This document shows positions 5,945 through 42,318 of a stretch of 64,000 nucleotides of DNA, piece after piece (position 1 is the stretch's first letter; the number at the start of each line of letters is the position of its first letter). This DNA is from Alphaproteobacteria bacterium (GTDB lineage: Bacteria > Pseudomonadota > Alphaproteobacteria > UBA6615): the NCBI GenBank assembly GCA_028279245.1, contig JANQOE010000040.1:4121-68120 (forward strand), in the 5' to 3' direction. The translations under genes were made by a program, and so were the position numbers. The notes under the pieces were generated by a model that saw nothing but the letters and a program-made list of their open reading frames with translations, was not told where the DNA came from and made no database searches.

Positions 5945-5956
5945 AGCGGGGACAAC

Positions 5957-7030: not shown

Positions 7031-7033
7031 GCG

Positions 7034-16417: not shown

Positions 16418-16648
16418 CTGGACTGCTTCCGAACATCTAACACCTAGACTTGGTCGCTGAACGCAGCACATGTCGCAGTTCTCTTGAAATGCCCTAAGAC
16501 CGAATTCACTGCTTTGACCCTATCGGCAAAACTCGACCGGAACCTTTGGGCCGTTGCGGTTACATCGTGTTTCTCCGATCCTTCGATACCATTCCAGCAC
16601 CATGTCGGAGGCCAACCGACACCCAGCGGAGGCAATCACCAAAACGCC

Positions 16649-18160
16649 ATGTCATTGGCATTCTACTCACTTGTCTTGACGGCATATGCGGTCACTCTTC
16701 CTGACGAACTGCTTCTTCCGTCATCCCAGAAGTTCATCCTCCTACTCGGTGTCATTGGTATTTGGCGATACGGATGGGGCGGTCTTCACTTCATCCGTTC
16801 GATTGTCTTCCGGAAGCTTGTTTTTCCCGCCCAAAGGCAAAGAGCCATGCAGCTGGGTGCATCCAGCAACCCGCCGCATGTTTATCTGCTCCTAACGACC
16901 TTCCGCGTCGACGCTGAGAGCACACGCCTCACATACCAAGCGGCGTTTGCCGAAGCCGCGCGTGCCTCCTGCCCCGTAACGATCGTCGCATCCATCGTCG
17001 AGATGAGCGATCAAAGGACGATCAAGTCACTGTTTGAGGAAAGCGGCACACCGCAGCATGTTCGGCTAATACTCGTTCGGATTCAGGGAAGCGGAAAACG
17101 CGACGCATTGGCCGCCGGGTTCCGCGCAATCTCCCATACAAGTCCGCCGCCAGGATCTTTGACGGCAGTTCTCGACGGTGACACGATAATCGCGCCAAAG
17201 ACCATTGAACGGTGTGCACCATTTTTTGTCCTCAACCCAAAGCTAGGTGCCCTAACCACCGACGAGGACAACATAAGTGTAACGCGCTCACGTCTATACC
17301 GTGAGTGGTATCATCTACGTTTTGCGCAGCGACATATACTCATGTCATCCATGGCGCTCTCCGGTCGGGTTCTCACGCTTACCGGCCGGCTATCCATGTT
17401 CCGTACCGAACTCGTTACCGCGCCCTCATTCATCGCTCAAGTCGAGAACGACTTCATTGAACATTGGCGCCTTGGCCGGTTCCGTTTCCTCACAGGCGAT
17501 GACAAGTCCACATGGCACTGGCTGCTACAGCGGGGTTGGCAGATGGCCTACATCCCCGATGTTCGAATCCTGACTATTGAACAACCACCCCATCCGAACT
17601 TCTTCATTGGCGCCACGAAGCTGCTGACACGGTGGTCCGGCAACACAATAAGAACAAATGCCCGGGCACGGCGCGTACCTGCCTCCACCATTGGGCCGTT
17701 CGTCTGGTGGGCACTGATAGACCAACGTCTATCAAAGTGGACATCACTATTCGGACTGACGCTGGCGACACTGGGTGCCATAGTTGCCGGCATTCAGATC
17801 CTATACTTCTACATCTTCTGGATTGGCCTCACACGGCTCATGCAGACCTTCATGCTACTCAGCGCAAGATCACACATATCCGCGCTCCATCCATTTCTCA
17901 TCTACTTCAATCAGATATATGGATCCCTGATCAAAGTATACGTGGCGAGCCACATGGACCGCCAGAAATGGACCAGGCAGGACACCGCGCTGCGAGATAT
18001 GAGGGCGGGGCTCGCCCGAACATTTAGACGCATATCATCAGGCTATGTTGTTGCGACCTCCGTGATGACTCTGGTGGTTGGTGCGGGATTCGTCGTCGGC
18101 GCTTTTGGAGACGCCGATCTCCACCGCGTCGTCAGCTATGTAGGCAGGGGAGTACATTGA
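16649..18160 (+). CDS. alg8: Alg8-like processive family-2 glycosyltransferase (mannuronan/hyaluronan/chitin-synthase type polymerase)
   Basis: N-terminal TM helices, cytoplasmic GT-A domain with DGD (DxD), GDDKS(T)W and LTRWSGN (Q/RxxRW-type) motifs as in HAS/NodC/Alg8, then C-terminal TM bundle. ORF is open from 16484; I prefer the Met at 16649 (MSLAFYSLVLT…, GGAGG upstream), where the hydrophobic core begins. Confidence 0.65.
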   Translation: MSLAFYSLVLTAYAVTLPDELLLPSSQKFILLLGVIGIWRYGWGGLHFIRSIVFRKLVFPAQRQRAMQLGASSNPPHVYLLLTTFRVDAESTRLTYQAAFAEAARASCPVTIVASIVEMSDQRTIKSLFEESGTPQHVRLILVRIQGSGKRDALAAGFRAISHTSPPPGSLTAVLDGDTIIAPKTIERCAPFFVLNPKLGALTTDEDNISVTRSRLYREWYHLRFAQRHILMSSMALSGRVLTLTGRLSMFRTELVTAPSFIAQVENDFIEHWRLGRFRFLTGDDKSTWHWLLQRGWQMAYIPDVRILTIEQPPHPNFFIGATKLLTRWSGNTIRTNARARRVPASTIGPFVWWALIDQRLSKWTSLFGLTLATLGAIVAGIQILYFYIFWIGLTRLMQTFMLLSARSHISALHPFLIYFNQIYGSLIKVYVASHMDRQKWTRQDTALRDMRAGLARTFRRISSGYVVATSVMTLVVGAGFVVGAFGDADLHRVVSYVGRGVH

Positions 18161-19323
18161 AGGCATTGCAGTTAACCTACGAAGCGGAGCGTCAACGACA
18201 ACACGCGCGCTACCGCATACCCGCCATCGCCGAAATCAACGGAACGCGCTTCGTCGTAGCCAATTGGTCAGTTGGAGGTTTCTGTGTAGAGAATTTCCAC
18301 TCTTCCGCGGCGCTTCCCGAAACATTCCCGACAACACTAAGGTTCCAGTTTCAGTCCTTTGAATTAGCTCTCGACGTACAGGCTGAACTTCAACGCCGGG
18401 TAACGGATAGCGAAGGCGATACGATCGGATGTCGTTTTACCGGCATCGACCAACACCAACGATCACAGCTCCAATACGTCGCGAACGCATTCTTGTCCGG
18501 TGAGATTGTGTCGACTGGCGACGTCCTTCATGTCGTAAGTCGAGAAGACCTCAACCAGGTCCAGCGTGCCCTCCAGATCACCCAACAGAAGACCTTGGGC
18601 ACCCGGATGAAGCGCTTCGCCGGCCTTGGTCTAACGACCCTTGCCGGCATCGCACTGTTCGGCTTCATTGCCGACACAGTCTTCAATCGTGTCTTTGTTG
18701 TCGACGCTTTGTCTGGGGTTGTAGATGCCCCCATTGTCGTCGTCCGGTCACCACAGCCCGGCTACTTCGAACCATTTGGGGGCGGATCCGGCAACAACGT
18801 AAGCGCCGGAGAACCACTTGCCGCGGTCGAGCTCATTGGTGGCGGCGCGACCACACTCGATAGTCCGTGCAACTGTAACATCATAGAGTACCACGCCCGA
18901 TCTCGAGAGTTCGCCGCCCTGGGCGAACCATTGATCACACTCCTGCCGGAAAAAACGGGCACCGAGATCCTCGCTGAGGTCTTCATCGCCGACTTTCAAC
19001 GCATCGCGATTGGTGACCCGGCGACCATCAGGTTTCCGGATAGGCGCGAGTTGGCAGGCCGCGTGCTACGCGTTCAGCACGTGACCACGCCCGAGCAGGA
19101 TCGCTCAACCCAACTTCAGAGCCCGCCCGCAAACCCCCTTACTTACGGACACGTCGTTGTCGCGCCGAACGAACCTGTTAACGTAAGGTTCCTCGGCACG
19201 CCCGTAAGCGTGCGGATCAACACTTTCCGCGCGCTGGCCGCCTTCAGCGACCGTACCAAAGCATTTCCCACAAACGTTGCCCGCGCGGATTCGGGTCGAC
19301 CACCAATCCCAGAGGAGCGGTAA
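18157..19323 (+). CDS. alg44: Alg44-like c-di-GMP-binding PilZ-domain / membrane-fusion (HlyD-like) co-polymerase
   Basis: N-terminal PilZ motifs RQHAR…(RxxxR) and NWSVGGF (D/NxSxGG), one TM (LGLTTLAGIALFGFIA), then periplasmic MFP-like beta-rich domain. TTG start overlaps the synthase TGA stop (TTGA). Confidence 0.7.
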   Translation: MKALQLTYEAERQRQHARYRIPAIAEINGTRFVVANWSVGGFCVENFHSSAALPETFPTTLRFQFQSFELALDVQAELQRRVTDSEGDTIGCRFTGIDQHQRSQLQYVANAFLSGEIVSTGDVLHVVSREDLNQVQRALQITQQKTLGTRMKRFAGLGLTTLAGIALFGFIADTVFNRVFVVDALSGVVDAPIVVVRSPQPGYFEPFGGGSGNNVSAGEPLAAVELIGGGATTLDSPCNCNIIEYHARSREFAALGEPLITLLPEKTGTEILAEVFIADFQRIAIGDPATIRFPDRRELAGRVLRVQHVTTPEQDRSTQLQSPPANPLTYGHVVVAPNEPVNVRFLGTPVSVRINTFRALAAFSDRTKAFPTNVARADSGRPPIPEER

Positions 19324-19325
19324 AG

Positions 19326-19715
19326 ATGGCTGGACTTAGCGAACAGTTAGCTGACAACGAAGAAGTGAAACGCGATTGGACAGAACGGCCGTGGGGAACC
19401 CACGCCACCATCTACCGGTCCGATGCCGGCGTGATCCACATCATGAGCGTCAAGCCCAAGGCACGTCTCTCACTTCGGCAGAACTTCGACCATACCGAAC
19501 ACTGGACCATTGCTCAGGGCAACGCCGAGGTTCGGCACGGTGAGCAAATCCATAATCTCGGCAAGGGCGGCTCGATTCTCATACCCAACGGGACTGTTCA
19601 CGCGCTTGAGAATGCTGGCGACACGCCGCTGGTACTTGTCCAACTCCAACTGGATAAAGCCACCGAAGGCACAGACGAGGATATCCCGGCCACTCAGACA
19701 TACCCCGCGAGTTAA
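19326..19715 (+). CDS. Cupin-2 protein homologous to the C-terminal mannose-6-phosphate isomerase domain of type-II PMI/GMP (AlgA/ManC)
   Basis: ERPWGTHATIY…HIMSVKPKARLSLRQNFDHTEHWTIAQGNAEV…ILIPNGTVHALENAGDTPLVLVQLQ matches the type-II PMI cupin consensus (RPWG…LSLQ.H.HR.EHW…G.A.V…IP.G..H.L.N.G). Confidence 0.7.
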   Translation: MAGLSEQLADNEEVKRDWTERPWGTHATIYRSDAGVIHIMSVKPKARLSLRQNFDHTEHWTIAQGNAEVRHGEQIHNLGKGGSILIPNGTVHALENAGDTPLVLVQLQLDKATEGTDEDIPATQTYPAS

Positions 19716-21337
19716 TGCGTCGCACAGCAACGAACCAAAGCCGTACCGGGTTCTTGCCGGTTCTATCTGCGTATGGCCGTCCACTCGTGGCCACGCTGTG
19801 CGCTGCTGCCCTCGCAATAAATGTCGGACTCGCCGACGCCCGCGCGGCTGAGAACACTGATCCACCAATCGAAATCACGCCAATTGATGGACCGGTCTAT
19901 CATCCGGCACTCCCCGAACTCCCCGACCTTACACCCTACACCACGGAGGCCGTCCGCAATCTGATACCCCGGACCTTCGACGGCAGGAAAGCCCAGCTCC
20001 GCCCGCTGCAGGACGTCCCCACCGTCTCCTTGGCTCATCTGTTCGAGATGAGTCCCTTCTGGCTAGAGCAAGGCGACCTAGACCCGAAGGGCATCGTCCT
20101 GCAACGCGGCACCTACACCCTGGAAATGCTCGAGCAGCACATCGACGATGCCGCCGTATTCGCCAGAGAAGCGGAAAGTACCTACCTGCTACGACGGCCC
20201 ATAATCGTCCTTCCGAACGCCACCCTGGTCATCCGTGACGGAGAGTGGTTGAAGCTAGATCTGCACGCCGGCGTCTTCATTTCTGTCACCGGCCAGTTCA
20301 TCATGGCGGATTCCAGCCTCACCACCTGGGACAGGCATACCGCCACCATCGGCAAACGTGAGGAAATACCTCCCGAAACACTGCTTCTCTACGGTCTACA
20401 AAAACCCCGACCGTTCTATCTAGCAATGAACGGGTCCAAGACTTACATGGCGAACTCCCATATCGCCGGACTCGGCTACAAAGGCATCAACAGCACGTTC
20501 GGGCTATCGCTATCACCAACACCAAAGAACGAACTCGGATTGGGCAAACACTTGAGGCGATTGCCGGATCCAACGGGCTGGTTCATCGGCAACAGGATCG
20601 AGAGCTTGTTCTTCGGTTTCTACACGCATAAGGCCCGAGATGTTGTCGTTGTCGGGAACGATTTCGTCAGAAACGTCATATATGCGATTGATCCACATGA
20701 CTATTCTGTAAACCTCATCATTGCGCGAAACATCGTCCGCGAAACCAAGAAAGCCCACGGCATCATTTTCTCGCGCGGCGTAGCCGACAGTTGGATATTC
20801 GAGAATGTAGCGTACCGAAATGCTGGAAGTGGCATCATGCTCGATCGCGACAGCACCGACAATGTAATTTACGGGAATACCGTCATCGAAAACCTGGGTG
20901 ACGGCATCGCGATATACGAAAGCAACAATGCACTCGTCTGGGGAAATGATATTCGACTAAATGGTCGGGACGGCATTTATGTTCGCAACAGCTGGGACGC
21001 CGAGATTAGAGAGAATAACATTCAGAGAAATGGCGAGAATGGTATCGAAGTCGCGGTCGTCAACATCGATTTTCTAGAGACGAGAGACTTCGAGCTTGAT
21101 CCATACGACAAGCGGTCGAAGGCTCGAATAGTGGCGAACATCTTCGACGCGAACACAAACAGTGCAGTCGCCACCAAAGACGCCGACATAGTCCATCTAG
21201 CCGAAAACCATTACATGGACTCCGGACCGCTTTTCTTTTCCGGGGACTTAGAGACGATTGGCGGAAGACTAATCCGGGATCTGTTCGTGAAAAACCTCTC
21301 TGTCGATATCGTCAAACGTGGAGTGTTGAATGACTGA
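19715..21337 (+). CDS. algG: Periplasmic right-handed beta-helix protein, AlgG-like mannuronan C5-epimerase
   Basis: Signal peptide, tandem CASH/PbH1 repeats (…RNVIYAIDPHDYSVNLIIARN…NAGSGIMLDRDSTDNVIYGNTV…DGIAIYESNNALVWGNDI…DGIYVRNSWDAEIRENNI…). Contains the DPHD tetrad that is catalytic in Pseudomonas AlgG. Confidence 0.65.
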   Translation: MRRTATNQSRTGFLPVLSAYGRPLVATLCAAALAINVGLADARAAENTDPPIEITPIDGPVYHPALPELPDLTPYTTEAVRNLIPRTFDGRKAQLRPLQDVPTVSLAHLFEMSPFWLEQGDLDPKGIVLQRGTYTLEMLEQHIDDAAVFAREAESTYLLRRPIIVLPNATLVIRDGEWLKLDLHAGVFISVTGQFIMADSSLTTWDRHTATIGKREEIPPETLLLYGLQKPRPFYLAMNGSKTYMANSHIAGLGYKGINSTFGLSLSPTPKNELGLGKHLRRLPDPTGWFIGNRIESLFFGFYTHKARDVVVVGNDFVRNVIYAIDPHDYSVNLIIARNIVRETKKAHGIIFSRGVADSWIFENVAYRNAGSGIMLDRDSTDNVIYGNTVIENLGDGIAIYESNNALVWGNDIRLNGRDGIYVRNSWDAEIRENNIQRNGENGIEVAVVNIDFLETRDFELDPYDKRSKARIVANIFDANTNSAVATKDADIVHLAENHYMDSGPLFFSGDLETIGGRLIRDLFVKNLSVDIVKRGVLND

Positions 21338-24300
21338 ATACCGTCGGAGAACCAAGTCCAGAAAGCAGGAAATGAAGTCATATCCAAGCACTTTCTTGAT
21401 CGCGACCCTGCTTACTCTGGCCGCCTGCGGGGCCGCAAACACCAGTCCCACATCTGATCAGGGAGCCGAACTCACCCAGCCTCGATCAGAGCAATCAGCG
21501 GCAGATCGGGCAGGTTCGGAACGCGCCCGCGAACTCCTGCAACTTGGCGAACGCGCCGAGTTGGGCATTGATCGGCGTCAGGACTACTGGAAAGCGTCAT
21601 GGTGGTATCGGCGTGCCGCTCAACAGGGAAGTGAAGAGGCGCGCGCACGGTTAGGCGCCTTGTACGTAAACGGCCGCGGTGTCTCGAAAAACGTTGAGGA
21701 AGGGCTCCGGCTCCTGCAAATCGCCGCAGACCGCGGCCACGGTCCTGCCTCCGCGCGACTTGGGGAAATCTACGAGAAGGGCAAACATGTCGAGCGGGAT
21801 CTAGCAACCGCGGCACACCACTACGAAAACGCTGCGCAAGCGGGCGACCCCGAGGCAATGGTCAAGCTCGGCGAACTCTACGAAGCAGGCACCGGCCGGA
21901 CACAAAACGAAACGGAGGCTGCAAAGTACTTCCAACGCGCCGCCGATGCCGGTGACACCACAATCCTCCGCAAACTCGCCGGATACTACGACAAAGGCAT
22001 CGGAGTGGAGCAGAGCTACGCCGTCGCGGCCGACCTATACAACCGCGCAGTAGCCGCGGGAGATACCAGAGCACTCCGCTCATTGGCCTCTTACCACGAA
22101 AACGGACTCGGCGTACCGCAGAGCTTCGACCAGGCCGCAGCACTTTATGACGCCGCTGCCGCAACGGGAGATGCTAAAGCGCTGCTGGGCCTCGCCTCGC
22201 TCTATGAGCGCGGCTTGGGTGTCCCACAAGACATTGAACGGGCAATTCAACTACACGAGCAAGCCATTGCCGCCGGCGAGAAGAAGGCCTTGCGACAGCT
22301 CGCTGACCTGTATGTGAGCAACCCGTCCATACTCGAAGGCGAAGCAACAGTTGCACAGGCCGTAACCGATCAACAGCAATGGGCCCAAGCGGAGACTCCA
22401 CGCCGTTCAAGTGCCTTCGAGCAAGCCGCTGAGCTCTATCGCCGCGCGGCGGAGGCAGGTGACGTCACAGCACTGAGACGCCTAGCCGAGCTTTATGAGA
22501 CCGGACGCGGCGTCCAGCGGGATCCTCACCAGGCTGCGGATCTGTACAAGCAAGCAGCGGATGCCGGTGACGTGAAGTCCATAAAGGCCTTGGCCGAAAT
22601 GTATGTGGTCGGCCGCGGTGTCGAACAGGATTACCGTCGCGTTGTAGAGCTGTACGAGCAAGCCATCCGGCATGGCGATACAGACGCGGTAATGGACCTC
22701 GCCGATATCTACAAAGAGGGCAGAGGTGTCCCGCACGACTATGACCGGGCGCTTACACTCTACGAGCAAGCTGCGGCAACGGGCGACACCAAAGCTCTTC
22801 GCCAACTCGCCGAAATGCACAGAGTCGGCCTAGGCGTGGAAATAGACCACATACGCGCCGCGGAATTCACCAAAAACGCGGCTGATGCCGGCGACCTAAG
22901 AGCGATGCGTGATCTGGCCTCGCTGTACGAGAACGGTGAAGGCATCGAGCAAGACTTTAGCCAAGCCGCGGAACTGTACCAAGCAGTGATCGACGCTGGC
23001 GATGCGAAAGGACTACGAAAGCTCGCCGCGCTCTATGAGAAGGGGCGGGGAGTCACCCAGGACTACGACCAGGCGGCAAGCCTGTACGAACAGGCCCTTG
23101 AGGCCGGAGATCTTCAGGCAATTCGCAACCTAGCCAAAATGTATGAGGAAGGCCTGGGCGTTGATCGTGACTTGGTTCGCGCGGCTGAGTTACTTGAACG
23201 CGGTGTCGCGGCCGGCCAAGTAAAAGCCTTACGGGATCTGGGCGCCCTGTACGAAACCGGACAGGGCGTCACTCAAGACTTTGAACGCGCCGCAGAGCTG
23301 TACGGCCAGGCAATCGAAGCAGGTGACAACAAAGCAGCACGCCAACTGGCCGCGCTCTATATGGACGGCAGGGGCGTAGCACAGGACATCCCACGAGGCA
23401 TACAGCTCTACGAACAAGCAATCGAAGCTGGGGATCAGACAGCACTTCGCACCCTGGGAAAGATGTTCGCCGACGGTGACCAAGTCGAACAGGACATCCC
23501 ACGGGCTCTGGAACTCCTGAAGCGCGCAGCAGACGCCGGTGACACGCGCGCAATGCTCGACCTAGCTGAACTCTACATCGAGGGTCACGGCGTGGAGCCC
23601 GATGCCGACCGTGCTATCGAGTACTACGAGAAAGCCAGTGACGCCGGCGACTTGGACGCTCTAAGGAGCCTCGCGCAACGCTATGCGGCAGGCGCGGGAA
23701 TCCAACAGGACCCCGACGAAGCGATCAGGCTACTGACTCGAGCTGGCAACGCAGGAAGCACCCAAGCACTGGTGGATTTGGCTGCGCTTTACATTGATGG
23801 TGAAAACATCCCAAAAGACCCATCTAAAGCGGCTGCCTTGTACGAGCAAGCCGCGACAACCGGTGACGTAGCGGCACAGCGCAAACTAGCGGACCTATTG
23901 CTTTCCGGTGACGGTCTGGCGGTCGACCCAGTGCGAGCAGCAGGCCTCTATCAGCAGGCGGCAAACGCGGGTGATGCCAGCGCTGCCGACAAGCTCGGAA
24001 GGCTATATGAGAGTGGCATCGGCGTGCGCCAGGACCACACGCATGCCGTCCAACTCTATGAGCAAGCAATAGCGGCTGGCGCAGGCGCGGCCGCAAAGCG
24101 GCGGCTTGGAAAACTGCTGGTCGACGGCCAAGGCATCAAACATGACCCGGGCCGCGCGGCACAGCTGTTTCAAGAGGCGATTGACGGAGGCAGCCACGCC
24201 GCAATCCTGAACCTGGCAGAACTGCTTGAGGACGGCCTGGACGATCCACCCGACGACCTTGCGCAAGCCGCTTCCCTATATGAGACCGCAGCGAGCGTAG

Positions 24301-25985
24301 GCGATGCAACTGCGGCACGACGGCTTGCGAACATCTACCGCAACGGACGCGGGGTGACCCGAAACTACGAACGCGCCGCAGAGCTATTCCTAACAGCGGC
24401 GGAAAACGGTCAGGCCAACGCACTGATAGAACTTGGGACCATGCATGAAGAGGGCGAAGGCTTCCCGAAGGACATCGGCCAGGCCGCCGAACTCTACTGG
24501 CGCGCGGCCGATGCCGGCGAACCAAAAGGGCTCAGGAAGTTGGCCGATCTGACGAAAGCAGGGCTTCTCGGCCCGGAAAATGATACCGGCGCCATAGAGC
24601 TATACAAGCAGGCTGCGGATACAGGAGACGCCCACGCGTTGACTCGGATTGCCAGCATGCATGAGGCGGGCGTCAACGGCGGCGACCCAGATTTTGAGAT
24701 GGCAGGCAACTACTATCGCCGCGCCATCGATGCTGGTGACAACTCGGCAAAACGTAAACTGGCAGCCATGTACGCGGACGGTCGCGGTGTTCCGCAAGAC
24801 TTGGCGCGCGCCGCCCGTATCTACGAAGACGCCGTCGAATCGGGCGACTACAAGGCGGCGCCTGCTTTGGCCCGCTTGTATCAGGAAGGGCAAGGCGTTG
24901 CGCAGAGTCCAGCCGACGCGTTTCAACTTTATCAGCTTGCCGTGGACAACGGCGACCAAGCTAGCCTGCGACCACTCGCCATAATGTACGAAGAGGGCCG
25001 CGGGACCACACAGGACTTCGTCCACGCCGCCGAACTCTACGAACGCGCCGCCGCGAACGGCGACGACAAGGCATTAGTCAGGCTCATTCTTTTGCAGGAG
25101 CGGGGAGCCGTCCCATCTACCGACAAAATGAAGCAAGCTCTCCTAGATCAACTGATCGACGCCGGTGAAGCTAAGCAACTCAACCGCCTAGCCGACACTT
25201 ATTTGGCAAGTCTCGATGTTGAGCGGATCGCCACAAGCGCCATCCCGCTCTATGAGCGTGCAGCAGACCTCGAGGACCCCCACGCCCATCTCCAACTGGC
25301 CAGGATCTTTGATGAGGGCTATGGCACATCACAAGACTATGAACGGGCAGCCGAACACTATACGGCGGCGATCGAACTCGGTAACGCGGGCGGACTACCT
25401 GGACTGGCGCGGCTCCACGAACTCGGCCTTGGCATGCCCCAGGACCCTCAACAAGCCGAGGCGCTACATGACAGAGCTCTCAAGGCGGGCACCCCAACCA
25501 TGCCAGAGAGCCTCGTGGAATCAGCACGACTACGGCGTGGAACGGAGTTGCTCCAGTCAGAAAACAGCCAAGATGCTCAAGTCGGAGTCCAACTCATTCA
25601 GGAGGCTGCAGACGGTGGCAGCATACGGGCAATGCGCCAGCTAGGGCAGTTGTACGAAAAGGGTGAGTTGGTGGCTGCCAGCCCAGAACTAGCGGCGGAG
25701 TGGTACGAACGAGGCGCGCGTGACAATGATCTTGCCGCTGTCCACCGGTTGGCCATGCTGTACCTAACCAACCCGACAGCAACCGACACGCAAAGGCAAG
25801 AAGGATTGGTCCTACTGGCCACTGCTGTCCAACAGGAGCATCCGCCAGCCATAGCTGAATTCCAGATGGCCCTGGACACCCTAGGCATTGACGAAGGGCA
25901 ATTCGAGGCGGCTCTCGAAAACGCCGGTACCAGACTTGCGTGTGGTGTGTACATCCTGGACGGTGCGAACTGTGCCACGCCTTGA
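21330..25985 (+). CDS. Giant Sel1-repeat (TPR-like) lipoprotein, AlgK-like scaffold expanded to about 35 repeats
   Basis: Lipoprotein signal and lipobox (LLTLAACGAANT). From about residue 60 on, the Sel1 unit (A…LA.LY..G.GV.QD…A..LY..AA.AGD..A) recurs at least 33 times by my count. 1551 aa. Overlaps the upstream gene by 8 bp. Confidence 0.8.
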   Translation: MTEYRRRTKSRKQEMKSYPSTFLIATLLTLAACGAANTSPTSDQGAELTQPRSEQSAADRAGSERARELLQLGERAELGIDRRQDYWKASWWYRRAAQQGSEEARARLGALYVNGRGVSKNVEEGLRLLQIAADRGHGPASARLGEIYEKGKHVERDLATAAHHYENAAQAGDPEAMVKLGELYEAGTGRTQNETEAAKYFQRAADAGDTTILRKLAGYYDKGIGVEQSYAVAADLYNRAVAAGDTRALRSLASYHENGLGVPQSFDQAAALYDAAAATGDAKALLGLASLYERGLGVPQDIERAIQLHEQAIAAGEKKALRQLADLYVSNPSILEGEATVAQAVTDQQQWAQAETPRRSSAFEQAAELYRRAAEAGDVTALRRLAELYETGRGVQRDPHQAADLYKQAADAGDVKSIKALAEMYVVGRGVEQDYRRVVELYEQAIRHGDTDAVMDLADIYKEGRGVPHDYDRALTLYEQAAATGDTKALRQLAEMHRVGLGVEIDHIRAAEFTKNAADAGDLRAMRDLASLYENGEGIEQDFSQAAELYQAVIDAGDAKGLRKLAALYEKGRGVTQDYDQAASLYEQALEAGDLQAIRNLAKMYEEGLGVDRDLVRAAELLERGVAAGQVKALRDLGALYETGQGVTQDFERAAELYGQAIEAGDNKAARQLAALYMDGRGVAQDIPRGIQLYEQAIEAGDQTALRTLGKMFADGDQVEQDIPRALELLKRAADAGDTRAMLDLAELYIEGHGVEPDADRAIEYYEKASDAGDLDALRSLAQRYAAGAGIQQDPDEAIRLLTRAGNAGSTQALVDLAALYIDGENIPKDPSKAAALYEQAATTGDVAAQRKLADLLLSGDGLAVDPVRAAGLYQQAANAGDASAADKLGRLYESGIGVRQDHTHAVQLYEQAIAAGAGAAAKRRLGKLLVDGQGIKHDPGRAAQLFQEAIDGGSHAAILNLAELLEDGLDDPPDDLAQAASLYETAASVGDATAARRLANIYRNGRGVTRNYERAAELFLTAAENGQANALIELGTMHEEGEGFPKDIGQAAELYWRAADAGEPKGLRKLADLTKAGLLGPENDTGAIELYKQAADTGDAHALTRIASMHEAGVNGGDPDFEMAGNYYRRAIDAGDNSAKRKLAAMYADGRGVPQDLARAARIYEDAVESGDYKAAPALARLYQEGQGVAQSPADAFQLYQLAVDNGDQASLRPLAIMYEEGRGTTQDFVHAAELYERAAANGDDKALVRLILLQERGAVPSTDKMKQALLDQLIDAGEAKQLNRLADTYLASLDVERIATSAIPLYERAADLEDPHAHLQLARIFDEGYGTSQDYERAAEHYTAAIELGNAGGLPGLARLHELGLGMPQDPQQAEALHDRALKAGTPTMPESLVESARLRRGTELLQSENSQDAQVGVQLIQEAADGGSIRAMRQLGQLYEKGELVAASPELAAEWYERGARDNDLAAVHRLAMLYLTNPTATDTQRQEGLVLLATAVQQEHPPAIAEFQMALDTLGIDEGQFEAALENAGTRLACGVYILDGANCATP

Positions 25986-26541
25986 TCCGCCGCCCGCTCG
26001 CATCTCCAAGCGGGGCACACACACCATCGTCAGATCCATAAGCAGCGCCATAGTATTTTTTGCCGCTGCGGTGGCCACGACGACGGCCGCGGCTGCGGAC
26101 ACTCCCGTCGTTGACCCCAAGCGTTTCGAGGCCGTGCAAGCGCTGAACCTTCAGCTAGAGGCTACGACCCTGGCGACCTCGGAACGCAGTCCAAATGATT
26201 CACAACGCGTCAACGGCAATCAAAGCCGCAAAACCTTGGCAGAAATACTTAACAGCGGCCCAGCCGAACGTTTCCAGCGAAAGATGGCCGCCAGCAACCA
26301 TCTTCATCAGCTAAGAAACGAACGGGTTGCACGCGAGCGCGCCGAGCAAGAGGAAGCCACCGGAGAAGATCGAGCCCGCATCGATCGCGCGACAAGTCGA
26401 CGCCGCGCGAGCGAAGTTATCGCCCGGCACATACCGAAAAGAGAGGTCGATGAACTCCAAGCCGCTCTCACCGAAGCGATGGACCTCGTTAACCTGCACC
26501 GCGAGGCGGAGAACCTGATCCAGCTCGAGTTCGACCGCTAA
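25888..26541 (+). CDS. Hypothetical secreted, highly charged/coiled-coil protein
   Basis: ORF opens at TTG 25888 inside the 3' end of the Sel1 gene. A GTG at 25972 would give a clean Sec signal (…RISKRGTHTIVRSISSAIVFFAAAVATTTAAAA/DTP) with only a 14-bp overlap. The rest is R/E-rich helical. Confidence 0.45.
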   Translation: MTKGNSRRLSKTPVPDLRVVCTSWTVRTVPRLDPPPARISKRGTHTIVRSISSAIVFFAAAVATTTAAAADTPVVDPKRFEAVQALNLQLEATTLATSERSPNDSQRVNGNQSRKTLAEILNSGPAERFQRKMAASNHLHQLRNERVARERAEQEEATGEDRARIDRATSRRRASEVIARHIPKREVDELQAALTEAMDLVNLHREAENLIQLEFDR

Positions 26542-27740
26542 ACCGTTTGCTGCCGCCTCAAATCATCAACAGCCACGGCCTCATTCTGCTGGTCCCGGCG
26601 AGAAGACAAGAGTTCCATAAGCCGAGCCGCCCCGACCGAGCCGCTCCGACCGACATTAAACACAAGCCGATCCCGTGCAGTTCGAATACGTGCAACCGCA
26701 ACCTCATTTGCATCCGTCGCTAGTCGTCGGATCACCGCTCCAATCTCGCCGAGCTGATCCGGTGACACCACGGCGCCAAGTTCCGCCCGAACGCTGACCT
26801 CCACTGGCTCCAGACCCAAGCGATGGTAATCCGGGTTACGTACCTTCCGCGGGACGTCCACAAACACCACCGGTCGCTCTTGGCTAAACGCAAAGTCCAG
26901 CGCCGCCCCAGACCAATCGCTCACCATGATATCCGCGCCAAGCAATGACTCGGCCGACGAGATGTTATCGTCGTAGACGAACCGTTCATGAGATCCGAAC
27001 CGGCTCCGTATCTCCTTTAGTGTGTTCGCGGACCGCCGCTTCGTCTCTGGATGGGGCCGAACCGTGACCGCCAACCCGGCATCGATCAACGCACCAACGA
27101 CTTCGTCCCCCAACGTTTCCAAAAGACCATCTGGCCCCCATGACGGGGCGACAAGAACCGATATCGGGTCATCAGGTCCTCTTGTCCGCTGGAGTCCTTG
27201 TGCTCGTCCAGCAATTATCCGATCAAGGCGACCATAACCATGTTCGAACAGCCGTTTTTCCGGCAACCCATGAAGTGCCTCCGCCGCACGTATCTCCTCA
27301 ACATGATGCGGTCCGGCACAGAATATCTCATCGAAATGGTCGAACGCTTCTTGTCGATAGACCATGTGCGAGCTGACGATCGAGTGATGGATATACACAT
27401 ATGAAACAGGGTAGACGGAGCGCTTTAGCTGGAGGGTCTGCAGATCGGGCGTGGTCATGACGAGAACCTCCGCCTGCAGGGTCCGGAAAAGCATGGTTCT
27501 GGTAACTTGGTCGCCAACAAAGAACCCGGAAACCCGACCATCGTCTAGCTTGAGGCCAGGGTCATTGCGGTCCGACGCCAAGTAGCAGATGGATTGGCCG
27601 TGATCCTTCAGAAGGCTCAAAATCACCGGCTCCAGATGCGGCCAGCTAAAGCTCCCCTCCGAATAGAAGACAATCCCACGCGCCTCGGCGGGCAGTGACT
27701 GAAAGCGGCGCGAACCACGCCAAGCATCCATCAAGCGCAT
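26538..27740 (-). CDS. CDP-alcohol (CDP-glycerol-type) phosphotransferase, TagB/TagF family
   Basis: C-terminal MVSDWSGAALDFAFSQERPVVF parallels the TagF active-site region (…TDYSS..FD……P…F). 400 aa, soluble. 4-bp overlap with the convergent upstream ORF end. Confidence 0.6.
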   Translation of the reverse strand: MRLMDAWRGSRRFQSLPAEARGIVFYSEGSFSWPHLEPVILSLLKDHGQSICYLASDRNDPGLKLDDGRVSGFFVGDQVTRTMLFRTLQAEVLVMTTPDLQTLQLKRSVYPVSYVYIHHSIVSSHMVYRQEAFDHFDEIFCAGPHHVEEIRAAEALHGLPEKRLFEHGYGRLDRIIAGRAQGLQRTRGPDDPISVLVAPSWGPDGLLETLGDEVVGALIDAGLAVTVRPHPETKRRSANTLKEIRSRFGSHERFVYDDNISSAESLLGADIMVSDWSGAALDFAFSQERPVVFVDVPRKVRNPDYHRLGLEPVEVSVRAELGAVVSPDQLGEIGAVIRRLATDANEVAVARIRTARDRLVFNVGRSGSVGAARLMELLSSRRDQQNEAVAVDDLRRQQTV

Positions 27741-28534
27741 AACAACTCGCCTGGCTCGGCCAACTGACAGAATCGGGCCAAGTCCCCCCTACTCTTCCTA
27801 TCTTCGATGAAGTTGACATCTGCAACCGAGTCCACCTCAAGCCAACCACCGCTAATACACGCCGCATGTACAGGCTCACCGCGATCAACCATGATCTGCA
27901 GGAAGTCTGTCATGTACAGGTCGCGTTTCTTCCGCCCTCGGATGCCAAAGTCGTTGTCCAGATTTCGGTAAAGATCTACCAGATGGCGGCCCGACCCAGC
28001 AGCTATTTTCAGTAATCCGACGTAACGAGCATCGATGTCGTCGGAGCTTGTTGGTACATCCCCGATCTCCGTAATAAGGTTTGACGGACCCATCTTAAGG
28101 GTTTCCGAGTCCTCTAGAAGATCGTTGTACCGAGCCCGCCAATAAGCCCGCCAGGACGTGTCCACCGTCACGGCAACGCTTCCGTCCTCCTGCAGCAGGC
28201 TTCTTAGTACCCGCGCCTCAAAAACGATATCGCCGTACGAAATGATGGCGTCTTCACCAGAACCAAGCACCTCCTCTGCACACATCAGCGACTCAACCAT
28301 GTTTGAGGTGGCGTAGGCTGGGTTACGAATTGTGCGGCAACCGGAAGGCCGAATCTGATCGCCTTCGAAGCCGGTCACGATGGTTATGTCGGTGATACCG
28401 CACTCACGGAGAACCGCCAGCTGACGGTGCAGAATGGGCACCTCACCGATCTCCACTAAGCACTTCGGTCGATTGGTCGTTAAGGGACGGAGTCGCGTCC
28501 CCTGGCCGGCCGCAAGAATGATCGCCTGAGTCAT
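27731..28534 (-). CDS. Sugar/alcohol-phosphate nucleotidyltransferase (LicC/NTP_transferase family; likely cytidylyltransferase)
   Basis: AIILAAGQGTRLRPLTTNRPKCLVEIG…ITDITIVTGFEGDQI aligns with LicC (AIILAAGLGTRLRPMTENTPKALV…INDIIIIVGY). 10-bp overlap with the downstream gene. Confidence 0.75.
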   Translation of the reverse strand: MTQAIILAAGQGTRLRPLTTNRPKCLVEIGEVPILHRQLAVLRECGITDITIVTGFEGDQIRPSGCRTIRNPAYATSNMVESLMCAEEVLGSGEDAIISYGDIVFEARVLRSLLQEDGSVAVTVDTSWRAYWRARYNDLLEDSETLKMGPSNLITEIGDVPTSSDDIDARYVGLLKIAAGSGRHLVDLYRNLDNDFGIRGRKKRDLYMTDFLQIMVDRGEPVHAACISGGWLEVDSVADVNFIEDRKSRGDLARFCQLAEPGELLCA

Positions 28535-29229
28535 TTCGTTCCTTCAAACAGCCGCTTTATCCGGCCAATGTCCGATTCTCGAGAAGGTCCCGGGCGCTCC
28601 GGGTGCCACATGAACCCCTCGCAACAACGCCATGTCTTGTGTCGAAAACCTTCGATCGACCCGTCGTCGGCGACTACAGTCGGGTCCAAGTTGTCGGCAA
28701 CGCCACTAGGCAACACGGCATAGTCATGAAAGCTGTTGACGCTGAATGAGCGCGATCCGTCTGTCGGGTCCAAAGCAAAGACCGTGTGCTCTGTTCCCGC
28801 GTGTCCCTCTATGTGATCGAGACTGCCGCCAAAGTGTACGTTGAGTACCTGCATGCCACGGCATATCCCCAGTATGGGAAGCGCGCGCGCGTGGCATTCA
28901 CGCACCAGCCGAAACTCGAACTCATCCCGTTCGGCGGCCGCCGTGCGCGCATCATCAAGATGCGCCAGGTCGTTCCCACCTGTGAGGATGACGCCACAAA
29001 GGTCTAACGCATCCAAGTAGGTCGAGGTCTCATCAGTTACCGAGTTGCTCAGCGGTATGGGCAGGAACCCAATCGTCCATAGGAGCCGGGCCCAAGCCTG
29101 ATCAAGACAGTCGCGCCGCTCTTGTCCCGAATAGAAGACCTCGACACGTTGGGTGAGCCCGATGCGTCTCACCGGACCGAAGTCACGTGCATGGCTGCCT
29201 CGGCTCGACGGTGTCACCAAACGTTCCAA
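28531..29229 (-). CDS. Class-I glutamine amidotransferase-like hydrolase (peptidase C26 / PuuD-like gamma-glutamyl hydrolase)
   Basis: ILGICRGMQ nucleophile-elbow Cys, downstream His/Glu (FMWHPERPG). The start is probably internal (GTG near VRRIGLTQRV), which would relieve the 47-bp overlap with the next gene. Confidence 0.7.
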   Translation of the reverse strand: MERLVTPSSRGSHARDFGPVRRIGLTQRVEVFYSGQERRDCLDQAWARLLWTIGFLPIPLSNSVTDETSTYLDALDLCGVILTGGNDLAHLDDARTAAAERDEFEFRLVRECHARALPILGICRGMQVLNVHFGGSLDHIEGHAGTEHTVFALDPTDGSRSFSVNSFHDYAVLPSGVADNLDPTVVADDGSIEGFRHKTWRCCEGFMWHPERPGPSRESDIGRIKRLFEGTK

Positions 29230-30994
29230 CCGAAACGCCGCCCGGATTGAACCGAACTACGTTGCCACAAATCCGACCCTGTGGCCCACGCTGCAGCTTC
29301 ACCGCACCAGCTTCATTGTCGACGAACTGGTTGCCGTAGATATCGTTGCCAACGCCGTCCGTCTCCTCGGCGCCGCCAACGCGTATCCCCGCACCTACGT
29401 TGCCCCAGACCGTATTGTACCGGAAGATGTTGCCACTGCCCCGTGAACCCAACCCGCCGGAATTGGGGTCTAACTGCCCTGTGCAGAAATTGTGCTCAAC
29501 GATGTTCCCAAAAGAGCCTTCTTTTACTTCGACGCACTCATTTCCTTGCGTGTCGAAAGTGTTGTGATGCACCCAATTGTTCTGGGATATATCGACGCCA
29601 TCCGTCGGGCTTTTCCCGTCACCATATTGTTTCGGTGACGTGCCGATGTAGACGCCCTCGCCACTCTTGCCGCCTTGGTCGAACTTGAAGTCCCTGACAC
29701 CACAGTTGCGGAAAGTCGAGTAGGCGATCTCATTGTCGCTCGCATAGTACCGGAGTCTAACGCAACGGCCGCGCGCGTTCTGAAACGCCACACTCAGAAT
29801 GCGCATCCCTTCAACACCATCGAACGGCTCAGTGCCTTGAGCCCAAAGCAGTGTCCCCCGATAGCTGTCAAGATCATCGTCTTCATCGAACTTGCCGTCG
29901 ATCTCTAGGTCAGAGATGGTAATGAAGTCATGGTTGATCTCGACAATCCGGTCATCCCCGCCACCTTTGATCACCGCGCCAGGCGTGCCGGTAATGAATA
30001 TCGGCTGTTCGGCTGTTCCATGCCGGACGGAGCGAACGTCCTGCATATAGACACCCGGGCCCAAGCGCACGACGTCGCCCGGCATCGCCCGCCTCAGCCC
30101 CTCTTGAATACTTTGCAGTGCCGCGGCCGCCGAACGCCCGTCCGCGTCGTCATCGCCATCGGGACTAACATGGTAGACTTGCCCTGCCCCAAACCCGCTT
30201 GAACCACTCCTGATCGGACGGTCAGTTGTAATAGGGTCCGGTATTGAACGGTCACGCGTCTCATTGGATTCCGAACCGCCGCGACTAACCGCAGCAACCT
30301 CAAGCGACTCCACAGATGACTCAACCGCCCCAGTGTCCGGCGCCGCGAACGTTATCTCAAGGCGAGGTCGATCCTTACGATCGTCATCGTCGCTTGAGCT
30401 AAACTTGAGTCCGTCGTCGGCTTCCGTATTGAGTATGACAAAGCCCCTATTCGGCTCACTACCGTTCACCCACGACTCAACAACCGCAAGTCCCGCATCG
30501 TTGAGCGTTGCACTACCGGCCCGGCTATCGACAACACCGAGAACTTCATCACCCCACCCTTTCCGGTAGGTTTCCCAGGTCGTTTCGCGGTCGTCCCAGT
30601 CGACGAGCGATTCATAGACTTGATACTGTTGCTCACTTTTCTGCGTAACGTTGATGGCGATACTCGCCCCAACGACCTTCGATCCCTCGGGTATTCTGGA
30701 GATGTCCCACGCCATCAAAGCAACATAGTCACGGCCTGAGCCATTCGGCCGGTCGCCGTCAACAACAAGCTCCTCGTCTCGGCCGAACTCTTCGTCCGGC
30801 TTAGACGCTGCCACATAAGTGTCCCGCGCACCGTCATAGTCACGACTCGGTGCGACGCCGCCCTGAAACGCCTCTGTGACCGTGCGCGCCTCGGCAGCAG
30901 CGGGATCGCCGCCAACCACGGCCCCCAACAGTGCCAACACAGCAATTCTGGAAACCGAGGACCGCCTCAGCGGGCCCCAACCGGCAACTACCAT
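29183..30994 (-). CDS. Secreted polysaccharide-active protein: N-terminal DNRLRE-like domain plus C-terminal right-handed beta-helix (lyase/epimerase-like)
   Basis: Signal peptide (AVLALLGAVVGGDPAAAEA). N-terminal half carries a …DDRKDRPRLEITF… motif resembling the DNRLRE domain. C-terminal PbH1 repeats (NNWVHHNTFDTQGNECVEV…NIVEHNFC…NIFRYNTVWGNVGAGIRV…NDIYGNQFVDNEAGAVKL). Confidence 0.55.
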   Translation of the reverse strand: MVVAGWGPLRRSSVSRIAVLALLGAVVGGDPAAAEARTVTEAFQGGVAPSRDYDGARDTYVAASKPDEEFGRDEELVVDGDRPNGSGRDYVALMAWDISRIPEGSKVVGASIAINVTQKSEQQYQVYESLVDWDDRETTWETYRKGWGDEVLGVVDSRAGSATLNDAGLAVVESWVNGSEPNRGFVILNTEADDGLKFSSSDDDDRKDRPRLEITFAAPDTGAVESSVESLEVAAVSRGGSESNETRDRSIPDPITTDRPIRSGSSGFGAGQVYHVSPDGDDDADGRSAAAALQSIQEGLRRAMPGDVVRLGPGVYMQDVRSVRHGTAEQPIFITGTPGAVIKGGGDDRIVEINHDFITISDLEIDGKFDEDDDLDSYRGTLLWAQGTEPFDGVEGMRILSVAFQNARGRCVRLRYYASDNEIAYSTFRNCGVRDFKFDQGGKSGEGVYIGTSPKQYGDGKSPTDGVDISQNNWVHHNTFDTQGNECVEVKEGSFGNIVEHNFCTGQLDPNSGGLGSRGSGNIFRYNTVWGNVGAGIRVGGAEETDGVGNDIYGNQFVDNEAGAVKLQRGPQGRICGNVVRFNPGGVSVGTFGDTVEPRQPCT

Positions 30995-33053: not shown

Positions 33054-34364
33054 ATGAGGATCAGTGTGTTCGGTATCGGCTACGTCGGCTCTGTGTCCGC
33101 TGCTTGCAGCGCCCAACAGGGCCATTCCGTCGTCGCCGTCGACTCAGACGAAAGCAAGGTCACGGCCATCAACGCGGGCGTCGCACCGATTGTCGAGGCC
33201 GGTTTGTCAGCCTTGATCGCGGAGCAAGTCAGCGAAAATCGACTGACTGCAACCGTCAAGGCGAGAAACGCAATACTTGAAACGGACGTCAGCTACATAT
33301 GCGTCGGTACACCAAGTCTCGAGACCGACGACATCAGCCTCAAACAGATCACCCATGTCTGCACGGAAATCGGTGAGGCTCTGCGCAGCAAGAACGAGCA
33401 CCACACTATAATCACGCGAAGCACAATGCTGCCCGGCTCGATGGAAAATGTGGTCATCCGGCTAATTGAGAAACACTCCGGACTGACGGCGGGAACAGAC
33501 TTCGGGGTCGGGATTTATCCGGAATTCTTACGCGAAGGCCAGGCGATATTCGACTTTACGCACCCGTCCACGATTGTCGCTGGGTGTCTCGACGACCAGA
33601 CAAAGGAGATTCTCCGCTCTCTAACAAGCCAATATGATTGCGAGAAGCACTACATCGACATACGCACCGCCGAGATGGTGAAATACTGTGCCAATGCGTG
33701 GCATGCTTCAAAAATCAGCTTCGCCAATGAAATCGGCTGGCTCTGCAAGAAACTTGAAATAGACGGTCACAAAGTTTTGGACGTCATGTGCTCCGAAACG
33801 CGTCTAAACATGTCTCGACACTATATGCGCCCGGGCTTTGCGTTTGGCGGGTCATGTCTCCCGAAAGACCTCCGCGCTCTCCGCCACAAGGCCAGGCATC
33901 AGGACATTAGTACACCGGTCCTTGATGCGATCATGTTGGCAAATGAACGCCAGATTGATCGTGCAATAAAACTGATTACGGGTAGTGGCAATCGTCGTGT
34001 TGGCTTGCTCGGCCTAGCTTTCAAGGCCGGCACCGATGACTTGAGAGAGAGTCCGTTGGTCGCGCTGGCGGAGCGTCTGATCGGCAAGGGCTACGAGGTC
34101 ATCATATACGACCGCGCGGTATCCGCCTCACCGAGCAAAGGAAACAGCCGCGCGGTAGATCGGGTTCTGCCGCACCTTGCCTCGATCCTTGTCGATGAAC
34201 TGGACCACGTCATCGATTGTTCCGACACGCTTGTCGTCGGTACGGAGGATGAAGACTTCAAGAACCTGAACGGACAGATCCGCCCCGAGCATACGGTGGT
34301 GGATCTGGTACGAGCCGACCCCGGATTGAGCGAAAGGTGCAACTACCAGGGCATCTGCTGGTGA
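33054..34364 (+). CDS. algD: GDP-mannose 6-dehydrogenase
   Basis: MRISVFGIGYVGSV…PIVEAGLSALI…ICVGTPS…HHTIITRSTMLPGS, near-colinear with P. aeruginosa AlgD (MRISIFGLGYVGAV…PIVEPGLEALL…ICVGTPS…RHTVVVRSTVLPGT). 436 aa. Confidence 0.9.
   Translation: MRISVFGIGYVGSVSAACSAQQGHSVVAVDSDESKVTAINAGVAPIVEAGLSALIAEQVSENRLTATVKARNAILETDVSYICVGTPSLETDDISLKQITHVCTEIGEALRSKNEHHTIITRSTMLPGSMENVVIRLIEKHSGLTAGTDFGVGIYPEFLREGQAIFDFTHPSTIVAGCLDDQTKEILRSLTSQYDCEKHYIDIRTAEMVKYCANAWHASKISFANEIGWLCKKLEIDGHKVLDVMCSETRLNMSRHYMRPGFAFGGSCLPKDLRALRHKARHQDISTPVLDAIMLANERQIDRAIKLITGSGNRRVGLLGLAFKAGTDDLRESPLVALAERLIGKGYEVIIYDRAVSASPSKGNSRAVDRVLPHLASILVDELDHVIDCSDTLVVGTEDEDFKNLNGQIRPEHTVVDLVRADPGLSERCNYQGICW

Positions 34365-42241: not shown

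Positions 42242-42318
<77 letters not shown>

Follow-up and report, generated by a model that had tools for sequence, protein, structure and literature searches.

Positions 4,121 to 68,120 of the alphaproteobacterial contig JANQOE010000040.1 (assembly GCA_028279245.1), a stretch of 64,000 nucleotides (nt) that is hereinafter called the window and provides the coordinates used below, encode a predicted lipoprotein of 1551 amino acids (aa) built from Sel1-like repeats (SLRs), hereinafter the giant. Its gene is the fifth in an operon on the plus strand. The four genes that precede it, together with two other genes of the window that bear on the identity of the pathway, are the following.

16649..18160, plus strand: Alg8-like synthase, a family 2 glycosyltransferase (GT2) (Pfam Glyco_tranf_2_3; 46% identity over 463 aa to Enterovibrio Alg8, E 1e-144)
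18157..19323, plus strand: Alg44-like co-polymerase with PilZ and HlyD-type domains (Pfam PilZ, HlyD_3)
19326..19715, plus strand: cupin-only mannose-6-phosphate isomerase domain, 129 aa (Pfam MannoseP_isomer, E 3.6e-22)
19715..21337, plus strand: AlgG-like mannuronan C5-epimerase, 540 aa (PDB AlgG 4nk6, E 1.8e-64, residues 55-481)
29183..30994, minus strand: CBM96 and Pel9A-like beta-helix protein (Pfam; 47% identity to a 384-aa beta-helix protein of the related locus L002)
33054..34364, plus strand: AlgD-type GDP-mannose 6-dehydrogenase (PDB 1mfz, AlgD of P. aeruginosa, 462 bits, residues 1-436)

Judging from these genes, the neighborhood is of the alginate type, with a predicted polymannuronate and epimerase pathway; the Alg8-, Alg44-, AlgG- and AlgD-like genes bear out the setting in which an earlier sequence-only reading of this DNA had placed the giant. 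In the Alg44-like protein, the PilZ domain is recognized with 29 bits (cut-off, 22.5), all PDB matches are to Alg44 PilZ domains, and the identity to canonical Alg44 is 25% (E 4e-25). The AlgG-like protein matches AlgG over the full length and scores 270 bits with the NCBIfam AlgG model, which is below the equivalog cut-off of 700 bits, and the AlgD-type protein scores 462 bits to AlgD vs 222 bits to the best UDP-glucose dehydrogenase. The CBM96/Pel9A-like protein is the counterpart of a lyase-like gene that adjoins AlgD in the sister operons described below. The position of the cupin is occupied in two sister loci, L010 and L014, by a complete bifunctional AlgA-type enzyme (GDP-mannose pyrophosphorylase/phosphomannose isomerase, GMP/PMI), which in L010 reaches 573 bits with the equivalog model. 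A separate 267-aa NTP-transferase is encoded at 27731-28534 on the minus strand.

With a synthase-dependent system defined after PMC9734138 and PMC7112194, the window encodes a membrane GT2 with a PilZ partner (the Alg8-like and Alg44-like proteins) and a periplasmic polymer-modifying enzyme (the AlgG-like protein); for the outer-membrane protein of the tetratricopeptide repeat (TPR) type, there is an SLR-solenoid lipoprotein that is putatively sorted to the outer membrane. A beta-barrel export porin was not found: Pfam scans of about 45 open reading frames (ORFs) and tblastn searches with two AlgE-like proteins detect no outer-membrane barrel or porin in the 64 kb, and AlgX, AlgI, AlgJ, AlgF, AlgL and AlgE are all missing among the window ORFs scanned. 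A scan of positions 15400-27000 for regulatory sites was uninformative, with no promoter-like sites and fewer terminator-like sites than in shuffled sequence.

The features of the giant itself and of its 3' boundary are listed below.

21330..25985, plus strand: ORF of the giant Sel1 lipoprotein, 1551 aa (ORF list; Pfam Sel1, E 5e-200)
21330..21428, plus strand: signal peptide with the lipobox LTLAA-C33 and Gly as the +2 residue (sequence)
21429..21497, plus strand: putative tether, disordered, ~22 residues that follow lipidated Cys33 (AlphaFold model, residues 34-520)
21594..25799, plus strand: Sel1-like array, residues 89-1490, with 37 units of 36 aa (self-derived unit profile, AlphaFold models)
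22317..22424, plus strand: first irregular segment, residues 330-365 (units 7 and 8 are 61 aa apart)
25455..25583, plus strand: second irregular segment, residues 1376-1418 (units 35 and 36 are 79 aa apart)
25587..25943, plus strand: homology to the N-terminal half of the accessory protein unk (see below), residues 1420-1538 (9-sequence unk profile, 58.4 bits)
25936..26541, plus strand: small ORF in the +1 frame, 201 aa from TTG 25936, with GTG 25972 as an alternative start (gene call on the Logan contig)
25940..25950, plus strand: GT-rich tract GTGTGGTGTGT, inside the interval where the giant frame and the +1 frame can be joined

The giant is encoded by a single unbroken frame, and a split of the ORF by a frameshift, one of the outcomes that the sequence-only reading had named as fatal to its proposal, was not observed at 21330-25985. 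The ATG is preceded by GGAG and overlaps the stop codon of the AlgG-like gene (ATGACTGA), which suggests translational coupling of the two genes. The leader consists of a basic n-region and a hydrophobic core followed by LTLAA-C33; residues 23-33 (LIATLLTLAAC) conform to the lipobox pattern [LVI][ASTVI][GAS]C, which should lie in the first ~35 residues, with either M1 or M15 as the start, and Cys33 is accordingly predicted to be lipidated, as the LAAC motif had already been taken to indicate. In the AlphaFold model of residues 34-520, the predicted local distance difference test score (pLDDT) is about 40 in the first two 10-residue blocks and below 50 at model residues 2-18 and 20-22, and the first helix begins at model residue 24.

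A search with Pfam Sel1 (PF08238) yields 641 bits (cut-off, 30.7; E 5e-200) and 21 stretches above the threshold. A profile derived from twelve of the giant's own units resolves 37 units in residues 89-1490, slightly above the earlier count of about 35 (at least 33). The unit spacing is 36 aa (35-37) with two exceptions, namely, an additional 25 aa after unit 7 and an additional 43 aa after unit 35. The first of these is the irregular insertion that had been placed at about residues 325-375, and the sequence quoted for it corresponds to residues 331-365; the second, at residues 1376-1418, comes in addition. The protein sequence identity of one unit to another averages about 0.36 whatever the offset (maximum, 0.61), and this uniformity rules out a recent block duplication of units.

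AlphaFold models were built for residues 34-520 and 1090-1551, with pLDDT of 91.2 and 89.2, respectively. Both modeled ends, for which structure prediction had been proposed as a check, consist of helix pairs only and form a continuous array without a globular insert; the first irregular segment is a low-confidence loop followed by one long helix rather than a separate domain, and the second one is helical, with pLDDT down to 59-81. Thus, the whole mature protein is predicted to be one continuous Sel1-like solenoid of helix pairs. A Foldseek search with both ends retrieves SLR proteins as the best matches, namely, EsiB (template modeling score, TM, of 0.65-0.67), LceB, HcpC and the Oxalobacter Sel1 protein 6OK3; similarly, the top matches in a PDB sequence search are generic Sel1 proteins, 6OK3 with 175 bits and EsiB with 147 bits. 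In EsiB, 11 SLRs span about 115 A with a pitch of 60-65 A and 7-8 units per turn (PMC3851747). When this geometry is scaled to ~37-40 hairpins, the giant would form a rod ~30-35 nm long and ~5 nm wide. The Gram-negative periplasm is about 20-30 nm wide, so that such a rod would be comparable to or longer than this width and could be long enough to cross the periplasm.

Operons of this lineage are rare. Among 5.8 billion sequences, three relatives of the Alg44-like protein were found, and two scans of 185,579 species genomes, one with the Alg44-like protein and one with an AlgG-like alignment as the query, returned none; one metagenome scan added two short loci. The relatives include metagenome-assembled genomes of Gamma- and Alphaproteobacteria. 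Sister contexts, gathered through the Alg44-like and AlgG-like proteins, share a conserved core that consists of AlgD, often a Pel9A-like beta-helix protein, the Alg8-like GT2, the Alg44-like protein and the AlgG-like protein, and differ in the export module, of which there are three variants. The canonical order algD-8-44-K-E-G-I-J-F-X-L-A is found in Enterovibrio norvegicus (L016).

Variant A (L002, L003-L007, L009, L017): the AlgG-like gene is followed by unk (~290-326 aa), an Alginate_exp porin and a Sel1 lipoprotein of 450-550 aa
Variant B (L010, L014 and the window): upstream of the AlgG-like gene is an AlgA-type or cupin gene, and directly downstream is the gene of a Sel1 protein
Variant C (L012, L013 and several database proteins of ~800-900 aa): the AlgG-like protein carries unk at its C-terminus, and the operon ends there, with no porin or Sel1 gene

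The giant, therefore, stands where the sister operons of variant A hold unk, the AlgE porin and the AlgK-sized lipoprotein, and none of the other components of these operons (free-standing unk, the Sel1 lipoprotein) is detected elsewhere in the window by tblastn or the Pfam scans. This synteny fits the idea, already present in the sequence-only reading, that the giant replaces several scaffold components. The AlgG-like proteins of L010 and L014 are the closest relatives of the one in the window. The L010 Sel1 protein (11793-13976) comprises at least 728 aa and at least 16-18 units and runs to the contig edge; the L014 one contains the lipobox VLSGC followed by Sel1-like repeats, 210 aa to the contig edge, and its N-terminus is colinear with that of L010 (E 1.6e-12). 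In L012 (10001-12448) and L013 (10001-12412), AlgG-like proteins of 803-815 aa include the whole of unk at the C-terminus, and no porin or Sel1 gene is found within 10 kb, so that the export end in these loci is even more minimal than that of the window.

The accessory protein for which we use the label unk is an unnamed component of this operon family, ~300 aa (~290-326 aa) in size, that is conserved across the sister operons, either on its own or as part of the epimerase. It contains a signal peptide, about two Sel1-like units, a helical segment with the pattern EGLxLLxMA...LLPD.LG...A..RL, an Arg-rich coiled coil and a C-terminal INxHR-type motif. The first ~100 positions of the unk profile match SLR structures; the rest of the protein, including its C-terminal half, has no relative in Pfam or PDB. 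In L012, L013 and several other database proteins, unk is fused to the C-terminus of the AlgG-like protein (BLASTP E 1e-19 to 1e-26; the AlgG-like proteins with this extension are P0126, P0130-P0133 and P0139), which implies a physical association of unk with the epimerase.

Comparison of the giant with a profile of nine unk sequences reveals that its residues 1420-1538, which contain two Sel1-like units and the specific segment EGLvLLa...LG(I/V)...A..RL, match unk profile positions 7-120 with 58.4 bits; among 120 unrelated long Sel1 proteins, the highest score is 29.9 bits, in the pure Sel1 positions only. The non-Sel1 part of the profile alone gives 22.0 bits on residues 1491-1537 of the giant, and the next best protein gives 4.6 bits. 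The unk protein of L017, which was kept outside the profile, finds its best match at residues 1395-1549, i.e., in the same place. The C-terminal half of unk is absent from the polypeptide of the giant and is encoded by the small ORF in the +1 frame, which overlaps the last 14-50 nt of the giant gene. The small ORF contains a Sec-like hydrophobic stretch, ISSAIVFFAAAVATTTAAAA, followed by the Arg-rich coiled coil and the INxHR-type motif; it matches unk profile positions 157-268 with 51.6 bits and aligns in BLASTP with unk proteins and AlgG-unk fusions at E 1e-6 to 1e-8. An exhaustive HMMER search with the small ORF against 1.84 billion representatives returned the query alone, a single sequence being too weak to reach the unk family.

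The C-terminus of the giant and the small ORF are together colinear with unk (e.g., L002 12663-13628, L009 1140-2120 and L017 11593-12555), and unk occupies the same operon position, directly after the AlgG-like gene. When the two frames are joined at about nt 25935-25960, the product aligns without a break to unk positions 7-268 with ~98 bits, and a W-x5-P motif that is readable in the +1 frame only contributes ~7 bits. It is, thus, plausible that a single ancestral ORF of ~1735 aa was split later. The stretch ISSAIVFFAAAVATTTAAAA, which is absent from other unk proteins, would act as a Sec signal of the small ORF product; given this stretch, a working gene fission is favored over a recent lesion. 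The version in the window then differs from the other unk proteins by its division into two ORFs, by ~35 extra Sel1 units and a lipobox in front, and by the signal-like stretch of its own on the C-terminal half. Taken together, the N-terminal half of unk in the giant and the C-terminal half in the small ORF indicate that the giant is most likely an unk protein whose Sel1 part grew from ~2 to ~37 units and that gained a lipid anchor, rather than an ortholog of AlgK.

From this origin and from the operon context, we lean toward the view that the giant is a lipid-anchored periplasmic scaffold solenoid of a rare, atypical alginate-type system and connects the complex of epimerase and synthase with the outer membrane. 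Lipidated Cys33, with Gly at +2 and the ~22-residue tether behind it, would fasten the N-terminus to the outer membrane, and at the opposite end the unk module and the product of the small ORF would jointly bind the AlgG-like epimerase and the Alg44/Alg8 complex. The rod between these ends would serve as a strut or guide that joins synthesis and epimerization to the outer membrane, as AlgK does in Pseudomonas, and the outer-membrane channel would be encoded elsewhere or dispensable. We infer the membrane location, orientation, length, partners and export role of the giant; its ORF, repeats and lipobox, the solenoid fold of both modeled ends, the operon identity, the homology to unk and the lack of a porin in the 64 kb are direct results.

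Several observations weigh against this proposal. With no outer-membrane channel in the 64 kb, the export role is incomplete, and outer- vs inner-membrane sorting of the giant is not readable from the sequence. The lipobox is not kept in L010, where the signal peptide lacks the Cys. The search for homologs of similar length, likewise proposed at the outset, detects no full-length ortholog of the giant in the collections searched, only generic long Sel1 proteins, and the structural models cover the two ends of the protein, residues 34-520 and 1090-1551. The split from the small ORF lies in a slippery GT tract and may stem from a sequencing indel or from a frameshift that inactivated the gene recently. 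Finally, the giant is acidic, uniformly along its length (pI, the isoelectric point, 4.8; net charge -81), whereas its L010 counterpart and the L002 Sel1 lipoprotein (15041-16390) have pI of 9.2 and 10.0, respectively, and the published AlgK/AlgE path is electropositive (PMC9734138), which argues against polymer guiding and makes direct binding of a polyanionic polymer by the giant doubtful. The acidity of the giant and of the AlgG-like protein of the window (pI 5.6) may reflect the host proteome, e.g., that of a halophile, rather than function.

Among the long Sel1 proteins retrieved in the homolog search, P0001 (32% identity over half of the giant) was considered as an ortholog and rejected given its unrelated neighborhood. 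Sel1 proteins of 1400-2450 aa are frequent in metagenomes. The next-highest unit count among the 120 best matches is 28, a comparison in which the unit profile comes from the giant itself so that the other proteins are underestimated. In one of these proteins, P0079 (1618 aa), TPR and Sel1 repeats are accompanied by a polysaccharide deacetylase domain (PF01522); it is another very long scaffold of helical repeats linked to polysaccharide processing.

An extended version of the scaffold proposal, which we consider unlikely, holds that the giant is a self-sufficient bridge across the periplasm, with the lipid end in the outer membrane and the other end clamped to the epimerase via unk, and that it functionally replaces both the AlgK/AlgE secretin and the free accessory protein. 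As a molecular ruler or strut, such a bridge would set how far the synthase lies from the outer membrane; the polymannuronate would pass to a non-AlgE exit or stay as a cell-bound or periplasmic layer, and the outer half of the synthase-dependent secretion system would have a new architecture.

The sequence-only reading had interpreted the giant as an AlgK scaffold expanded about threefold. In a full form, this interpretation would make it a true AlgK ortholog that docks an AlgE porin encoded elsewhere in the genome. The part of this claim that holds is the general one: the giant resembles AlgK in being a lipoprotein with TPR-like repeats that is encoded in an alginate-type operon, AlgK is present among its PDB sequence and fold matches, and the NCBIfam AlgK equivalog model (NF038194) matches it in 5 partial stretches with 161.5 bits. 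The specific affinity to AlgK is lacking. This score is far under the 700-bit cut-off and lower than those of the MotX (221.4 bits) and MerG (201 bits) models; AlgK 7ULA_B ranks 18th among the PDB sequence matches, with 39 bits vs 175 for 6OK3, and AlgK 3E4B ranks 28th-35th among the Foldseek matches, so that both by sequence and by fold the giant is closer to generic Sel1 proteins. The lipoproteins in the AlgK position of L002, L017 and the canonical Enterovibrio operon align with the generic middle repeats of the giant alone and in a non-colinear fashion; the only specific homology of the giant is to a different protein, unk, and no AlgE is found within 64 kb. Thus, the giant is not demonstrably an AlgK, and we regard the orthology as improbable. 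A related scenario, a fusion of an AlgK-like N-terminus to unk, is conceivable, but no colinear similarity was detected between the AlgK-position lipoproteins and the N-terminus of the giant.

A second Sel1 protein with a signal-anchor, which had been noticed at 38791-40221, is indeed encoded there on the plus strand, with 476 aa and ~10 units. It lacks a lipobox, is located ~13 kb from the giant and is not an obvious AlgK. The gene of a LuxR-type response regulator (38073-38837, plus strand) overlaps its start, and the two apparently make up a separate regulatory pair.

The giant could also be a Sel1 protein without any role in export, i.e., an ExoR-type periplasmic regulator, a general adaptor or an envelope strut that is merely co-transcribed with the alginate-type genes. 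Sel1 proteins are adaptors in many contexts, long Sel1 arrays occur in many unrelated ones (e.g., P0001), and the NCBIfam ExoR, MotX and MerG models all match the giant; the acidic surface, which speaks against binding of a polyanion, and the lack of a porin partner nearby are compatible with this possibility as well. However, the start of the giant is apparently coupled to the AlgG-like gene, its position is kept in three loci, and in sister operons the counterpart of its C-terminal module is part of the epimerase polypeptide; these connections tie the giant to the polymer machinery rather than to a generic role, and we give little credence to this explanation.

Decay of the locus is to be considered next: the ~1735-aa fusion of the giant and unk would have been broken by a frameshift, the porin lost and polymer export abolished, so that the giant would be a functionless relic. 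The restoration of the whole unk match upon joining of the frames, with the junction in the slippery GT-rich tract, is what such a history would leave behind, and the AlgE, AlgK-sized and free-standing unk genes of the sister operons are missing, with the AlgA-type gene cut down to a 129-aa cupin. Nevertheless, this is a poor description of the gene itself, in which a frame of 1551 codons is intact, the repeat consensus is well kept and the codon-position GC bias is strong (0.73/0.45/0.62). All other genes of the operon are full-length, a Sel1 protein directly follows the AlgG-like gene in two other loci as well, and the signal-like stretch of the small ORF, not found in other unk proteins, fits a working fission; hence, decay does not appear to be a probable explanation.

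Finally, it is hardly credible that the giant results from an array collapsed, expanded or chimerically joined during assembly: the source is a metagenome-type contig, and the Logan assembly of run SRR20820731, which matches the window DNA without difference over 24,656 nt, possibly shares the same reads and so provides no independent check, but the 108-nt DNA copies are 60-79% identical and the longest exact repeat inside the ORF is 17 nt, which makes an assembly artifact very unlikely, and Tandem Repeats Finder detects no array within the ORF, in which the repeat register is regular and the frame open throughout.

Several other genes and gene clusters of the window lie outside this operon. 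Divergent from the Alg8-like gene is a ParA/MinD-type ATPase (15728-16471, minus strand), which besides ParA models shows a weak match to BcsQ (TIGR03371, 47 bits) and may position the synthase instead of partitioning DNA. A convergent cluster on the minus strand (26538-32799) encodes a glycerophosphotransferase-like protein, the NTP-transferase, a class-I glutamine amidotransferase/peptidase C26, the CBM96 and Pel9A-like protein, and a sulfatase-like 603-aa protein; its content suggests extra polymer modification or turnover functions absent from the canonical alg operons. Just past the AlgD gene, at 34623-37787 on the plus strand, is encoded a 1054-aa protein with a phosphoenolpyruvate (PEP)-utilizing mobile domain and a nucleotide-binding domain of the pyruvate phosphate dikinase (PPDK) type. 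A second glycan cluster, at 210-9205, includes a Wzy_C-type polymerase/ligase, DUF5672, GT2, a family 4 glycosyltransferase (GT4), a sulfotransferase-like protein, a methyltransferase, GDP-mannose 4,6-dehydratase and two further NDP-sugar epimerase/reductases, and looks like a GDP-fucose-type O-antigen or capsule pathway. The only hit in the Rfam scan is one tRNA, tRNA-Arg(TCT) at 42242-42318 on the minus strand, which adjoins a phospholipase D (PLD)-like protein (40515-42164); gene content changes downstream of the polysaccharide region.

Among known proteins, the generic SLR proteins (EsiB/c5321, 4BWR; HcpC, 1OUV; LpnE; LceB; the Oxalobacter protein) share with the giant the 36-aa two-helix unit and the right-handed superhelix. 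They contain 4-11 units and are secreted or surface adaptors, none of them encoded in a polysaccharide operon, in contrast to the giant with its 37 units and alginate-type operon. AlgK (PDB 3E4B, 7ULA) is, like the giant, a lipoprotein of helical-hairpin repeats encoded in an operon with homologs of Alg8, Alg44 and AlgG, and both are presumed periplasmic scaffolds of synthase-dependent systems. However, AlgK consists of ~10 divergent TPR-like repeats vs ~37 canonical Sel1 units in the giant, which also differs by its acidity, by the lack of an adjacent AlgE or AlgX, and by the C-terminal module that is absent from AlgK. Hallmarks of AlgK are the binding of AlgX, AlgE and Alg44 and a requirement for the localization of AlgE. 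In Pseudomonas, AlgK bridges to Alg44, AlgX and AlgE (PMC9734138; PMC4436075).

The TPR domains of BcsC, PelB and PgaA, in the machines for cellulose, Pel and poly-N-acetylglucosamine (PNAG), respectively, are long periplasmic helical-repeat solenoids of synthase-dependent systems, similar to the giant. BcsC or PelB contains ~19 TPRs, so that the giant has roughly twice as many repeats. In these proteins, the repeats are fused to a C-terminal beta-barrel, whereas the giant is barrel-less, lipid-anchored and of the Sel1 type. The repeats of BcsC, PelB and PgaA are thought to organize the modifying enzymes and to guide the polymer (PMC9734138, PMC9384988); more generally, scaffolds of the TPR type that are connected with the outer membrane belong to the features that define synthase-dependent systems, in which they are coupled to a beta-barrel porin, and the periplasmic organization and reach of the alginate machine are still open (PMC9734138).

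Atypical alginate operons without algKE have been described in environmental bacteria (Bundalovic-Torma et al. 2020, PMC7112194). The operon in the window resembles these in being divergent and rearranged and in lacking outer-membrane transport genes, and differs from them in that its lineage adds the Pel9A-like beta-helix gene and lacks AlgX, AlgI, AlgJ and AlgF; that survey describes neither a giant Sel1 lipoprotein nor the unk module. Long Sel1 arrays are already known to be common in metagenomes, and porin-less atypical alginate operons have been noted; the host of the window is uncultured. What is new is a combination of features: an extreme, regular Sel1 lipoprotein, in which repeats are about 4 times as numerous as in AlgK, occupies the scaffold position in an operon of the alginate type with no porin nearby; it probably derives not from AlgK but from the undescribed accessory module unk; this module is split into two ORFs in the window and is free-standing or fused to the epimerase elsewhere in the lineage; and one conserved core is combined with three alternative export modules. 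The AlgG-unk fusions point to a physical link between scaffold and epimerase, and the three alternative export modules on one Alg8/Alg44/AlgG core should be useful for asking which outer components of the alginate machine are required.

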